A stretch of 64,000 nt of DNA, from NCBI RefSeq assembly GCF_011045215.1, contig NZ_CP049202.1, one strand, 5' to 3'. The position numbers were made by a program, and so were the translations under genes. The DNA is from Escherichia coli. Lineage in GTDB: Bacteria; Pseudomonadota; Gammaproteobacteria; Enterobacterales; Enterobacteriaceae. Shown here one piece after another: positions 2,382-7,260 of this stretch. Numbering within the stretch: the stretch's first letter is position 1; every line of letters starts with the position of its first letter. Below the pieces are notes generated by a model. It searched no databases and was not told where the DNA came from. It saw only the letters and a list, made by a program, of their open reading frames with translations.

Positions 2382-3083
2382 GATAATACTCCGGTAATAA
2401 AGTATGCAGGCAGTATATACGTGAACAGATGTAATGACAAATGTATTGACATGTGACCTATGCCGCGTCAGCGGCATGGAAGGCGGCACTCCGTTGTTTC
2501 ATGTGATACTGGTGTAAAACCGCCGAAGCCCGGCGTAAGCCGGTACTGATTGACAGATTTCACCTTACCCATCCCCAGCCCTGCCAGACTATACCCGCTT
2601 TCAGCTATGAGAGAGCTTCTGTGCGCGGTCGGAGTGGTCCCGACGAGGGTTTACCCGAAGTCGGGGCGTATCTCCGCGTTAGCGGGCCGTCAGGGCCGCT
2701 TACGAGCGTGTACACGATACGTCCAGCCAGAAGACTGACAGCGATGATGATGTAGTTACAACATTCATAATTAAAAGCGACTCTGTTCCGGCCCTTTGGG
2801 CCGGGGCGGGGCCGCTTTTCAGTTATGAGGGATGGGCACGGTGTTTCAGAACTGTGTCTGTCGGGGCCCGCCGCTTGCGGTGGGAGGTGCTTTTAAATTC
2901 TGAGCGGCGCGGCTTTGGCCGCTGCAAGCGAAGGCCTTTTTGTATTTGTTCATAGACGTTTCAGAGATAAAGACTTTCCCTGCGGTGGAACAACGCAGGG
3001 GATTAAATGAAGGGGGTAAGACTATATTGCAGGTTTGCTGTTTCAGGTTTGCAGCTTCTTAAAGTTCTTTGTTTGCGGATTTA

Positions 3084-3092
3084 TGTGGATAA
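3084..3092 (-). promoter_or_regulatory. DnaA box (TTATCCACA on minus strand) in putative oriR
   Basis: plus strand reads TGTGGATAA, about 165 bp downstream of the 342-aa rep ORF stop, as in R1/R100-type origins. Confidence 0.5.
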
Positions 3093-3210
3093 CTGAAACG
3101 ACGTGGCCACGTTCTGACGACCGGTGAGAGATTTTATGGCCGTGTATGGACGGATGTGGGGATTTCAGGTGGTTACGGGGGATTTCTGGCCGGACAGAAC
3201 CTGCGCCAAA

Positions 3211-3225
3211 AGCCCCGAAGGGGCT
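3211..3225 (-). terminator. rho-independent terminator-like hairpin after the rep ORF
   Basis: AGCCCC-GAA-GGGGCT stem followed by a U-run on the minus strand, 35 bp after the stop at 3259. Confidence 0.5.
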
Positions 3226-3258
3226 GGCGATGATTCAGTGCTGAAGGAATGGTGTTGT

Positions 3259-4287
3259 CTAGTGCGGTGGCGGGGCAGCCAGCGTCAGTTCAAGCTGACG
3301 CAACTCCCTGATGGCCAGTCGCTTCAGATGGTCATCGGAACAAAAATAGGCTTCATCCGGCGGCAGACGCTTCCTGAGATACTCTGCCATCTCATGAATC
3401 TGCTGGTCGGCAGGCAGTTTCTTCAGGCGATTAGCACGCTTACAGGCTGCAGCTTTCGCCCGACGGTGTTTCAGCGCATCCTGGCTGCGCTGCAGATACC
3501 AGCGTTTTCTGGCCGCATGTACGGAGATATCTTCATCCTCACGCAGTACACCTTCCCGGATGAGCTGCTGGCGGATTTCACTTTCACGCAGCCGCTTCTG
3601 CTGCTGTTCGTGAAGTTTAACCATATCGACGCCCAGCATCTGCCACCCTGCCGGTGTTATCCAGACATAGCGCGGCAGACGCTGGCGGGTTTCACGGTCC
3701 CACATCGTTTCTTCCGACACACCCAGCACACCAAAACGTACCTGTTCGGTCAGCAGACGGGAAAGCCGGGAGACCGTCACTTCCAGTTCCGGAATAACCT
3801 TCCCCTTGCTGTCTTTCGGGCTGATTTCTCTGGCCAGACGGGAAACACTCATGCCTACGGTATGTGTGCCCGCATCACTGAAGCTGACCAGAACCGGCCA
3901 GATGGCATCGAGGAGGCGTTGTTTTTCCGGACGGAAAGCATATTTGCGACCGGCGAACGTCCGTTTCTGCACGTAAAAAGGATGCAGAGACATGTGCATG
4001 CGCAGGCTCTGTTCGCCAGTCACCGGGTCCTTTTTCACCAGGCGGTGATAAGCGTGCCCAAGCTGCCCGCTCAGCGCCTTATAGCGCGCAGGACGATACC
4101 AGGTCGGATTTTCGCATTTGGGTTTAGTGGAGTGCTCACCACGACGACGCTTTGTGCGCTTCCTTTCCGGTTCAACCAGGAAAGTGGTCGCCCTTCCCGC
4201 TTCATAATCTTCCCAGAAACGGATTTGCTCTTCGGGAGGCAACTGAGCCCAGTGGCCTGGACGGGTATTTTTAATCACCATACCCAC
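3259..4287 (-). CDS. replication-initiator-like ORF (342 aa, basic); relationship to RepA1 unresolved
   Basis: long ORF ending at the terminator and DnaA box; overlaps the RepA1-like ORF in another reading frame; opposite-strand 430-aa ORF judged a shadow. Confidence 0.45.
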
Positions 4288-4816
4288 TCCGTAAGACAGC
4301 CAGACGTGCTTCAGTCAGCGCCAACGGAAATATCCCTAAAAACTCAAAAAAACGAGGCGTCAGCGTTATTGTGCAGCGCTTATTGTAAAAATCTGATGAC
4401 GGGGAACAGACTATAAACCCAAAATCTTCTTCCAGTGATTTAATTGCTCTGACAGCTCGCTCAATGGCTAAATGACCATGAGCATTTTTTCTGGCTAATC
4501 CGCAATCAAGTGCAAGTTCGGTTATAGAACGATGCACTTGATTTGAAACAGGATCGTAGTAGAAGCACATGCCTTGCAACAGTGCATCAATAGCTCTGCG
4601 ACGAAGAACGGAAGGCTTGCGTTTACGTTTACCATTAGCGCGCGCGCACGCAGAAGCTATATCGAATGCAAATGTTTCGGTAAACCCCACCGCTTTGCCC
4701 ATTAGCTTCTCACAGAACGGCAGCGTCCTGGCACCTTCACGGGGTGTGAATACCGGATTAGGGTTCTTTACCTGACGGTAATACGTTTGTTGAAGATCAG
4801 TCACACCATCCTGCAC
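4271..4816 (-). CDS. repA1: RepA1-like replication initiator, N-terminal region (IncFII RepA family)
   Basis: N-terminus (V)[24 protein letters not shown] and [13 protein letters not shown] match IncFII RepA1 as recalled; ORF stops after 181 aa instead of about 285. Confidence 0.55.
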
Positions 4817-4839
4817 TTACAATGCACAGAAGGAGTGAG

Positions 4840-5100
4840 CACAGAAAGAAGTCTTGAACTTTTCCGGGCATATAACTATACTCCCCGCATAGCTGAATTG
4901 TTGGCTATACGGTTTTTAGATGGCCCCGGTAATCTTTCTAGCTCGCCAAAGTTAAAGAAGATTATCGGGGTTTTCACTTTTCTGGCCCCTGTAAATCCAC
5001 ATCAGAACCAGTTCCCTGCCACCTTATGGTGTGGCCAGCCATAAAATTCCTTAAACGATCAGCAATCTATCACTCACGCCTGAGATAAGCAATAATGTGA
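4840..5100. promoter_or_regulatory. copA antisense RNA / leader-peptide control region of the RepFIIA replicon (approximate)
   Basis: position between copB and repA1 with local hairpins; boundaries not determinable by eye. Confidence 0.3.
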
Positions 5101-5104
5101 ATAT

Positions 5105-5362
5105 TCACGAAATCGCTCTGCGTTTCAGCTCTGATTCAATCAGTTTTTCAAGCATCTGCGCCTGGGTAATACCTTCCTCATCCGCCAGTTCACTCAGCCT
5201 GTCTTTTAACCGGGCCTGGATAACCGCATGAAAAGCCTTATGAGTGTTGCTTCTGCGAGCCAGAGAAGCTCTTTGTCTCTCTCTGGCCGGAACAGGGTTA
5301 CCTTTCCGGTATGCACGCTTAGTGCCTGATGAGGAAGTCACTGCATTTTCTGTCTGCGGCAT
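5105..5362 (-). CDS. repA2: CopB/RepA2 copy-number repressor
   Basis: 85 aa; [11 protein letters not shown]...[16 protein letters not shown] resembles R100/R1 CopB as recalled; sits upstream of repA1. Confidence 0.8.
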
Positions 5363-5669: not shown

Positions 5670-6152
5670 TCAGACTTTATAAAATAAGGTGTCAGGTGCC
5701 ACAACTGACTGGACAAAACCAAAACGCTCATAAAACGCTCTGGCGTCATCATCAATTGCATGCACCATAACCGCCTTAACGCCAACCTGTTCAGCCACAT
5801 TTACAACCCGGTGAATAGCATCACTCAGCAGCCATTTACCGAAACCATGCCCCTGGGTACAAACATCAACAGCCAGACGCCCTAACAGAACAACAGGAAC
5901 AGGATTAGGCATGTTATGCCGCAAACTGCGCCCAAGCTCGGCATGTGTGACGGAACCCGTAGCTAATGAGTAGAACCCCACAACACGTAAAGTCCCCTCC
6001 AGGCAAATAACGAACGTGCGGGAAGCATTGAGCATCTGGTTTTTCATAGCCCGACCACGTAACCAGTTACTTAGCACCTCATTTCCACAGTCAAATGGCT
6101 GAAGTATATGCTCATCCGTCAGCAATGCCGGCGCGGTGACATTTATTTCCAT
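5670..6152 (-). CDS. GNAT-family acetyltransferase toxin (TacT/AtaT-like)
   Basis: 160 aa with GNAT-like core; overlaps the stop of an upstream DUF1778-like antitoxin ORF. Confidence 0.7.
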   Translation of the reverse strand: MEINVTAPALLTDEHILQPFDCGNEVLSNWLRGRAMKNQMLNASRTFVICLEGTLRVVGFYSLATGSVTHAELGRSLRHNMPNPVPVVLLGRLAVDVCTQGHGFGKWLLSDAIHRVVNVAEQVGVKAVMVHAIDDDARAFYERFGFVQSVVAPDTLFYKV

Positions 6153-6433
6153 TCAGGCTTTACCGCCATCAGACGTTCACGCCCTTCTGCATTCTGCACA
6201 GGAGCTTCCAGTTGCGTAATAAACGAATCATAACGTTCGTTATCCAGCACAAATAAGCGTTGATCCAGGATAATGTTTTTAGCTTCCTGGTAAGCCAGTT
6301 CAATGATGAAATCAGTACGGTTCTTATTGACCAGGCTCGCAGCATAATCAATAACGGCTCGTTCCTCATCAGTTGCCCGGATGTTAATCTGGTTTTCTCG
6401 CGGTGTTTTACGGACGCTTGCAGCTGTAGACAT
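6143..6433 (-). CDS. DUF1778-family antitoxin (TacA-like)
   Basis: 96 aa from internal ATG (MSTAASVRKTPRENQINIRATDEERAVID...); 4-bp style overlap with the GNAT gene. Confidence 0.65.
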   Translation of the reverse strand: MSTAASVRKTPRENQINIRATDEERAVIDYAASLVNKNRTDFIIELAYQEAKNIILDQRLFVLDNERYDSFITQLEAPVQNAEGRERLMAVKPEWK

Positions 6434-6551
6434 AAAAACCTCAATTGGTAACAATTTGCTATACAATTAATGTTATCGCAAATGGTAACAAAACGCTATA
6501 CAAAATCACTTACGGGAAAAGTGATCACTGATAAAAACAATGACAGAGGCC

Positions 6552-6765: not shown

Positions 6766-6915
6766 TTACTTCCGTGCTTCGTAGGCCAGAGTTATCTGCA
6801 CCACTGTATTTCTCCTGTGAATATTCAGCTCACACAACCGTTCCCTGAATATCAGTGAAAAACACAACAACGTGGCGCACACAGCGAGCAACCCTATAAG
6901 GGCATATTTCGTCAT
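6766..6915 (-). CDS. srnB: Hok/Gef-family membrane toxin SrnB-like, with overlapping mok-like leader frame to 6972
   Basis: MTKYALIGLLAVCATLLCFSLIFRERLCELNIHRRNTVVQITLAYEARK matches Hok-family SrnB. Confidence 0.75.
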   Translation of the reverse strand: MTKYALIGLLAVCATLLCFSLIFRERLCELNIHRRNTVVQITLAYEARK

Positions 6916-7260
6916 AAACTTTGACCTCTCTGCAAGGAAGAGGCTACAATCAGTAGTGTTAAGGTACTTCATGCAGACCTCACGAGTTAATGGATTAACG
7001 AGTGGGGTCTTCGCATTTCTGGTACCTGCGTCTTGCCTGAACCAGAAAGGCTCAGACACCCGCAGCGATAATACCACATTCCCGTTTGCCGGCCATGTAC
7101 CTGCATTTTCCGGTTATTATTATAAAAACGCCGGGGACGGGGAAAATTTGCTTTTTCCCGTTTCCGGGGTTGGACAACTGAGCAACGCGAAGGCGTCAGT
7201 TATTTCTGTTTATTACATTCTTCTGTATATTTTCTTTTTACAATTCGACACTGCCTTATC

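Follow-up and report, generated by a model that had tools for sequence, protein, structure and literature searches.

The question raised by this locus is whether a plasmid replicon of the IncFII family has a damaged initiator gene or an initiator region of a different design. The locus lies in a 64,000-nucleotide (nt) stretch of Escherichia coli DNA (contig NZ_CP049202.1), hereafter the window, and consists of copB, an open reading frame (ORF) of 181 amino acids (aa) at 4271-4816, and another ORF of 342 aa at 3259-4287, all in minus-strand frames; the two longer ORFs are in different frames and overlap by 17 nt. A preliminary description had recognized copB, a RepA1-like frame that stops early, the 342-aa ORF overlapping its end, and a terminator and a DnaA box beyond, all of which we recovered. 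It had offered three explanations, namely, a frameshifted repA1, a recombinant replicon with a foreign C-terminal part, or two genes, and had suspected a compromised initiator. Our analysis bears out the two genes: a complete 340-aa RepA (the long gene) and a separate short gene encoding an N-terminal RepA domain (RepA-N). We consider it probable that the replicon is intact and represents a conserved IncFII-family variant with a two-cistron initiator region, in which the long gene encodes the initiator and the short gene a selected accessory.

Two initiator-family genes behind one control region

The product of the short gene has 181 aa if read from the first GTG or 177 aa, starting MTDLQQ, if read from the GTG at 4804. 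It matches the NCBIfam models PRK13750 and TIGR03474 only at positions 3 to 171 of 287 (198.7 bits against a cutoff of 478) and 1 to 161 of 275 (183.7 bits against a cutoff of 446.9), respectively, and Pfam IncFII_repA at positions 6 to 171 of 275. Its 171 N-terminal residues are 55 to 60% identical to RepA1, while the C-terminal helical region of RepA1, approximately 110 residues, is missing. The predicted structure is a winged-helix domain. On these grounds, we take the short protein to be a winged-helix-domain-only paralog of IncFII RepA1.

The long protein matches NF040977 (RepA_IncFII_LM) over its entire length (positions 1 to 266 of 266; 316 bits, cutoff 70) and has about 56 additional N-terminal residues outside this match. 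It belongs to a large family of RepA/RepZ proteins of 337 to 343 aa found across the Enterobacterales, with PF02387 (IncFII_repA) precomputed for all of its homologues, and its AlphaFold2 model has a predicted local distance difference test score of 83. No sequence homologue of either protein was found in the PDB. Over the 117 residues of their common domain, the short and long proteins are only 24% identical. Because the long ORF covers NF040977 in full and differs this much from the short one, it should be a whole RepA and not a shifted continuation of the short frame; a frameshifted repA1 is thereby contradicted. The idea of a recombinant holds insofar as the locus is a mosaic, but what was acquired is not a C-terminal part; it is a whole RepZ/RepFIC-like initiator with its own origin (ori) module. 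Nor does the suspicion of a compromised initiator stand, as the long gene is intact, has a ratio of nonsynonymous to synonymous substitution rates (dN/dS) of 0.07 to 0.20, and is followed by a conserved hairpin, DnaA box, and ori.

The features of the replicon are as follows.
5105-5362, minus strand: copB (repA2), encoding a transcriptional repressor of 85 aa; matches PRK13702 and is annotated likewise in the PLSDB plasmids L001 and L002.
4889-4979, plus strand: CopA antisense RNA gene; matches Rfam RF00042 at full length (1-92).
4797-4871, minus strand: tap leader peptide gene, 24 aa by translation; "RepA leader peptide Tap" in L001.
4271-4804, minus strand: short RepA-N gene, 177 aa; start placed at GTG 4804 after the homologous tap/repA junctions in relatives.
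3259-4281, minus strand: long repA gene, 340 aa, predicted RepZ/RepFIC-type initiator from NF040977, its family, and selection.
4271-4281, minus strand: short/long junction, read from the sequence.
About 3208-3230, minus strand: GC-rich hairpin CAGCCCC-TTC-GGGGCT with a T-run (within 3200-3235), from folding.
2950-3100, minus strand: predicted origin region with DnaA box, repeats, and palindrome, from alignment with RepFIC and IncI1.

The locus has the features expected of the IncFII family: a CopB/RepA2 gene, a CopA RNA, a tap overlapping the next rep cistron, and an IncFII_repA initiator with a DnaA box and ori. A single RepA1 of approximately 285 aa directly after tap was not found; the cistron in that place has only the partial match to PRK13750. 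The copB product matches PRK13702 ("replication regulatory protein RepA") at positions 1 to 83 of 85 with 132 bits (cutoff 87), and CopA scores 97.5 bits against a gathering score of 60. A promoter-like site for CopA, TTGAAC-17-TATACT, is at 4854-4882 on the plus strand, and the minus-strand mRNA folds computationally into a CopT target stem-loop with the loop UUUGGCG. By homology, this CopB/CopA/tap control module is of the R1/R100 type.

Downstream of the long gene, the hairpin behind the stop codon is invariant in the window, RepFIC, IncI1, and the loci L005, L011, and L023. It is terminator-like and lies where IncFII and I-complex replicons have the CIS element, although it did not pass a simple terminator scan, having too few Ts. 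A perfect DnaA box, TTATCCACA, is at 3084-3092 (minus strand), with TCCGCAAAC adjoining. Two tandem 14-nt repeats at 3027-3054, CTGCAAACCTGAAA and CAGCAAACCTGCAA on the minus strand, and a CCCCTGC..GCAGGG palindrome at 2978-3000 beside the DnaA box are both conserved in RepFIC and IncI1 origins and are candidate initiator-binding sites. The whole hairpin/DnaA-box/ori region aligns closely with these origins, and the ori very probably belongs to the long gene, which would accordingly encode the complete RepA that initiates there.

Over the 105 nt that were compared (window 4150-4254; query 197-301), the long gene and IncI1 repZ are about 92% identical at the nucleotide level. This segment matched 1,661 plasmid records, most of them IncI1-type, with homology beginning at 4254; upstream of this position, the sequence occurs in only about 32 records, the two-gene ones. 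The IncI1 leader, with its Inc RNA target and repY, is absent from the window, and homology to more than 1,600 IncI-type records ends 27 nt inside the long gene.

Distribution, selection, and exchange of the short gene

The two-cistron arrangement occurs in at least 26 to 32 independent PLSDB records at 91 to 100% identity. At least 26 PLSDB plasmids contain the whole 2.5-kb region at 91 to 96% identity with two annotated repA genes, and the close carriers include plasmid 55989p of E. coli 55989 and several Escherichia albertii plasmids. An assembly or sequencing error at 4270-4320 was considered and rejected, since many independent assemblies have identical junctions. At 92% identity or higher, the short gene was found in 30 records, all with two genes. 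A DNA search returned no close full-length relative of it; the next-best hits, with 72 to 73.5% nucleotide identity, were also two-gene loci, on Salmonella salamae pCFSAN001010 and on pSB89A_IMI-2 (L005 and L006), where a 78-nt tap, a 179-aa gene, and a 339-aa gene follow one another with 8-nt overlaps.

At the protein level, a search gave 27 clusters of 174 to 188 aa with 52 to 99% identity, from Escherichia, Salmonella, Enterobacter, and Lelliottia, and more distant short proteins, of 176 to 192 aa, came from a profile search against 1.84 billion representatives. Every genomic context examined for the short family has an IncFII_repA gene of 338 to 341 aa directly downstream. The order of tap, short (about 180 aa), and long (about 340 aa) thus recurs in plasmids of Escherichia, Salmonella, Klebsiella, and Enterobacter and in metagenomes; the contexts with the module are the window, L001, L002, L005 to L020, and L027 to L029, with L017, L019, and L020 being distant metagenomic loci and L027 to L029 coming from Klebsiella and Salmonella. 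The module, a RepA N-domain gene of 174 to 192 aa overlapping an IncFII_repA gene of 337 to 343 aa, is therefore conserved and not an accident of one plasmid. Databases annotate the locus as two "repA" genes, and it appears to be undiscussed in the searchable literature, where we found no description of the arrangement; the older work on RepFIC and mosaic IncFII replicons lies outside that scope and may hold one.

Phylogenetic comparison of the common domain by neighbor joining, with the unweighted pair group method with arithmetic mean also run, placed the short proteins in one bipartition against the 285-aa RepA1 proteins in 100 of 100 bootstraps. The short proteins also have in common a C-terminal motif, F/S-P-L/Q-x-L-x-E-A-R/K-L, and they retain the winged-helix fold and the residues invariant across full-length RepA1. 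The short family is, by this reckoning, of single origin, with the RepA1-type C-terminal region lost once, long ago.

To gauge selection, dN/dS was calculated by the method of Nei and Gojobori and tested against neutrality; dS is saturated in the deepest comparisons, and the conclusions rest on the closer pairs. For the short gene, dN/dS was 0.16 between the window and L015 (22.5 synonymous versus 12.5 nonsynonymous changes, P = 2e-7), 0.16 between L015 and L016 (P = 1e-7), 0.20 between L005 and L006, 0.12 between L011 and L013, and 0.20 between the window and L005. The overall range, 0.04 to 0.22, is comparable to that of the long gene, which gave 0.12 to 0.18 for the same pairs. Moreover, the short ORF is intact in every copy across more than 50% amino-acid divergence, and the length differences between copies are in-frame (e.g., 175 versus 177 aa), with family lengths of 174 to 192 aa. 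These data indicate that purifying selection maintains the short gene and speak against both a pseudogene and a mere spacer.

Sliding-window comparisons were used to judge modularity. The window and L001 do not differ in the control region or the short gene and are 90 to 95% identical in the long gene, and the replicon's full identity (100%) with plasmid A of E. coli C5 ends at the short/long junction. The long gene and ori of L005 and L011 are about 92% identical, their upstream regions 84%, and their short genes about 55%; L006 and L007 follow the same pattern. From these shifts, we infer that the short gene is swapped as a cassette, the breakpoints lying at both conserved junctions, and the short protein does not appear to coevolve with the ori.

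The short gene can also be missing. In the RepFIC plasmid pSA53IncF (L003) and in L021, L023, and L025, whose hosts include Enterobacter hormaechei, Klebsiella grimontii, and Mixta, tap is coupled directly to the long gene. H178, an E. hormaechei plasmid, has a long gene 88% identical at the nucleotide level to that of L007; only the long part matches, and there is no short gene. Since near-identical long genes exist without it, the short protein is no obligatory partner of the long/ori module. Intermediate forms were seen as well: in P0174 (360 aa), the first ~25 residues of a short protein are fused to a long protein at a conserved HW motif, and P0011, encoded on a small contig, joins short and long and looks like an indel or a partial call. 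Together with the Enterobacter fusions P0189 and P0190 considered below, these suggest that RepFIC-type single-gene replicons can arise through deletion of the short gene. The N termini of RepFIC long proteins (MAERYISQRHW... in L003; P0174) resemble short-gene remnants, and such replicons may be deletion derivatives.

Proposed coupled translation and possible roles of the short protein

The junctions on both sides of the short gene are overlaps. The tap stop codon overlaps the GTG start of the short gene by 8 nt (GTGACTGA), as it does in 8 of the 10 two-gene loci checked; in the other two, L009 and L013, an ATG-initiated tap was not found. At the second junction, the short gene ends with a TAA (4271-4273) that falls within the opening codons of the long gene, which most likely starts at ATG 4281 (the NCBI choice in L001 and L002, giving 340 aa) or at GTG 4278, with an overlap of 11 or 8 nt, respectively. 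A GGAG Shine-Dalgarno sequence precedes ATG 4281 by 5 nt, and all relatives have a short/long overlap of 1, 4, 8, or 11 nt with a G-rich Shine-Dalgarno sequence.

In plasmid R1, CopA blocks translation of tap, to which translation of repA is coupled (PMC5717011). In the replicon described here, CopB would repress the rep promoter, and CopA antisense RNA would pair with the leader and block tap translation. The 8-nt overlap of tap with the short gene and the overlap of the short-gene stop with the long-gene Shine-Dalgarno sequence and start suggest that ribosomes are passed from tap to short to long across the overlapping cistrons. If so, CopA would govern both proteins, and the short protein would be made in a fixed proportion to, and ahead of, the initiator.

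What the short protein does is a separate question. It could occupy sites of the RepA family and yet lack the C-terminal part, and in this way it might brake its own ori or compete at the origins of rival IncFII plasmids. Proteins comprising the DNA-binding part of a transposase or initiator and coexpressed with the full-length form are known negative regulators, as with InsA versus InsAB' of IS1, the Tn5 inhibitor protein, and short pi of R6K; unlike these, the short protein here would come from a separate cistron derived from a diverged paralog (24% identity). We suggest, tentatively and as a possibility that falls well short of an even chance, that the short protein is a trans-acting DNA-binding modulator. 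A more specific form of this idea, which we hold to be rather doubtful, is that the short RepA-N is a device for plasmid competition or copy-number control: an IncFII initiator fragment that binds origins but cannot initiate, carried as a swappable cassette, which would throttle its own replicon or block coresident IncFII plasmids with a similar RepA1. The recognition helix of the L011/L013 short type appears nearly identical to that of R100 RepA1. The IncFII family is not known to control incompatibility through anything other than CopA RNA.

Several observations weigh against an intact two-cistron replicon with a coupled relay and a selected accessory. All 10 of the 10 typed carrier plasmids also have an FIA or FIB replicon, and none has this as its sole replicon. 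The motif of the R1-type RepA site, TCNTTTAAA, has no match in the ori region. Near-identical ori modules occur with different, exchanged short types, and this pattern speaks against sequence-specific action at the ori of the same plasmid. In P0189 and P0190 (Enterobacter sp., 469 to 473 aa), a degenerate short part is fused in-frame to the long RepA, so the short protein can decay, at least in this one lineage. Finally, RNAalifold on eight divergent short/long junctions gave essentially no consensus structure sequestering the ribosome-binding site and no pseudoknot, the window junction folds no more stably than shuffled sequences (z = -0.95), and the TTGGCG at the window junction is not conserved; as no conserved RNA structure was found at this junction, it is the conserved overlaps that speak for the putative relay.

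With respect to the carriers, FIA/FIB copresence is typical of IncF plasmids and is not a consequence of any defect seen here, and conservation suggests that the replicon is autonomous, although replication may yet depend on another replicon, as the preliminary description had suspected. Within the window, no further IncFII_repA copy was found, and tblastn searches with RepFIB RepA and RepE sequences returned nothing, a weak negative.

These points bear differently on the other explanations of the locus. Recent damage, in which recombination left a frameshifted or truncated repA1 pseudogene, the short ORF is decaying junk, and another replicon is relied on, would fit the mosaic structure, the short ORF's span of only 171 of 287 RepA1 positions, and the FIA or FIB replicon in every typed carrier. 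However, the short ORF has stayed intact through the divergence described above, its dN/dS is significantly below neutrality even in unsaturated pairs, the indels that separate copies keep the frame, the family forms a single clade with a conserved C terminus, and the 340-aa gene downstream encodes an entire initiator and not a missing C terminus; we consider such damage very unlikely. A programmed frameshift is harder still to credit. It would join the short and long proteins into an initiator of ~515 aa with two winged helices, like the two-domain iteron Rep proteins, and the overlapping ORFs in different frames and the natural in-frame fusions P0189/P0190 and P0011 would agree with it. Yet both the overlap length and the relative frame vary among members, each long gene has its own Shine-Dalgarno sequence and start codon, the long frame in the window is open only ~36 nt upstream of its start and has no slippery run, and P0011, as noted, resembles an indel or partial call on a short contig.

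Two further explanations take the short gene as real but give it another purpose. It might matter solely as a path for ribosomes, an overgrown leader like tap or repY with a functionless product; the conserved stop/start overlaps at both junctions, the fused, degenerate version in one lineage (P0189/P0190), and the related replicons in which tap by itself serves the long gene are in keeping with this. A pure spacer, however, should have a dN/dS near 1 and tolerate changes in length, whereas we observed 0.12 to 0.22, as low as for the initiator, a constant length range, and retention of the winged-helix fold and the RepA1-invariant residues; the short gene is quite unlikely to be a relay only. 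Alternatively, the short protein could be a positive coinitiator, a required or stimulatory subunit acting with the long RepA at the ori, e.g., as a heterodimer or in host-factor loading. Its position directly upstream of the initiator, with which it would always be cotranscribed and cotranslated, its purifying selection, and its DNA-binding-type fold of the same family all speak for such a role. Against it, related long/ori modules exist without the short gene (RepFIC, IncI1, L021, L023, L025, and H178), their function being inferred from abundance; long/ori modules that are almost the same are accompanied by very different short types, whereas proteins that interact tend toward the reverse pattern; and short/long identity is only 24%. 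We regard a coinitiator as unlikely. Altogether, an intact replicon with the long gene as initiator and the short gene as a selected accessory remains the reading that we favor.

Related replicons, neighboring genes, and replicon typing

The replicon combines traits of three known systems. Like RepFIIA of the IncFII plasmids R1 and R100, it has copB, CopA RNA, a tap with an 8-nt GTGnCTGA overlap, and a DnaA box and ori 3' of the initiator. Unlike R1/R100, it would couple tap to a 177-aa, N-domain-only version in place of the 285-aa RepA1; the part of initiator falls to a second gene, of 340 aa, which comes from another RepA lineage and has an ori module of a different kind. With RepFIC-type replicons (pSA53IncF, K. 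grimontii L023, and E. hormaechei L021), it shares the control region, the long RepA family, and the hairpin/DnaA-box/ori region; L003 aligns with the window everywhere but in the short gene, a 534-nt cistron that here separates tap from the ~340-aa RepA and that RepFIC lacks. The I-complex plasmids (IncI1/B/K/Z) with repY-repZ resemble it in the RepZ-type long gene, the very similar ori, and, as predicted here, the expression of the initiator via coupling to an upstream frame, whereas control here is of the FII type and the upstream frame would encode a folded protein of 177 aa, not a ~30-aa peptide.

A 430-aa antisense ORF at 3124-4416 (plus strand) spans the whole of the long repA and part of the short gene. 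It was rejected as a gene and considered a shadow ORF, as it is not conserved: the antisense stop-free stretch is 232 aa in the close relative L002 and 109 to 262 aa in others.

The first 25,000 nt of the window belong to a conjugative plasmid of the F type, on which traI, traD, traG, and further genes lie from ~8.6 kb onward; the best match of these 25 kb to a complete E. coli record is 92 to 94% over 75 to 79%. Directly upstream of copB, a gene for a GNAT acetyltransferase (160 aa; 5670-6152, minus strand) overlaps a DUF1778-type gene (107 aa; 6143-6466, minus strand), a pair resembling TacT/TacA-type toxin-antitoxin systems and annotated with the same genes in L001 and L014. Farther upstream lies a sok antisense RNA of the hok/sok type (6905-7061, minus strand; Rfam RF01794, 94 bits), where Hok/Gef is annotated in L001. 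Downstream of the ori, a RelE/ParE-like 97-aa ORF and an overlapping antitoxin-like ORF (1847-2140 and 2127-2489, both minus strand) correspond, by position only, to yacA/yacB as annotated in L014 and L016. PADLOC defense models returned nothing meaningful.

The mosaic structure also affects plasmid typing. MOB-suite types the replicon twice, as IncFII/IncFIC for the copB-to-short part and as IncI-gamma/K1 or IncI1 for the long repA, as seen in the PLSDB records L001, L002, L003, L014, L015, L016, and L028. The doubly typed plasmids are F-type (MOBF/MPF_F) and have no IncI backbone. Such double typing inflates counts of "multireplicon" plasmids and "IncF/IncI hybrids," among them pAA-type plasmids like the one in E. 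coli 55989, and the locus should not carry the annotation of a disrupted repA.

In Enterobacteriaceae, virulence and resistance genes are carried mainly by IncF plasmids, whose control of replication has become textbook knowledge. A conserved, selected third protein-coding cistron between tap and the initiator lies outside that picture. Should the short protein bind origins, copy-number control or incompatibility would gain a new layer, and if the protein serves in plasmid competition, it would be a protein-based incompatibility determinant in the IncFII family.

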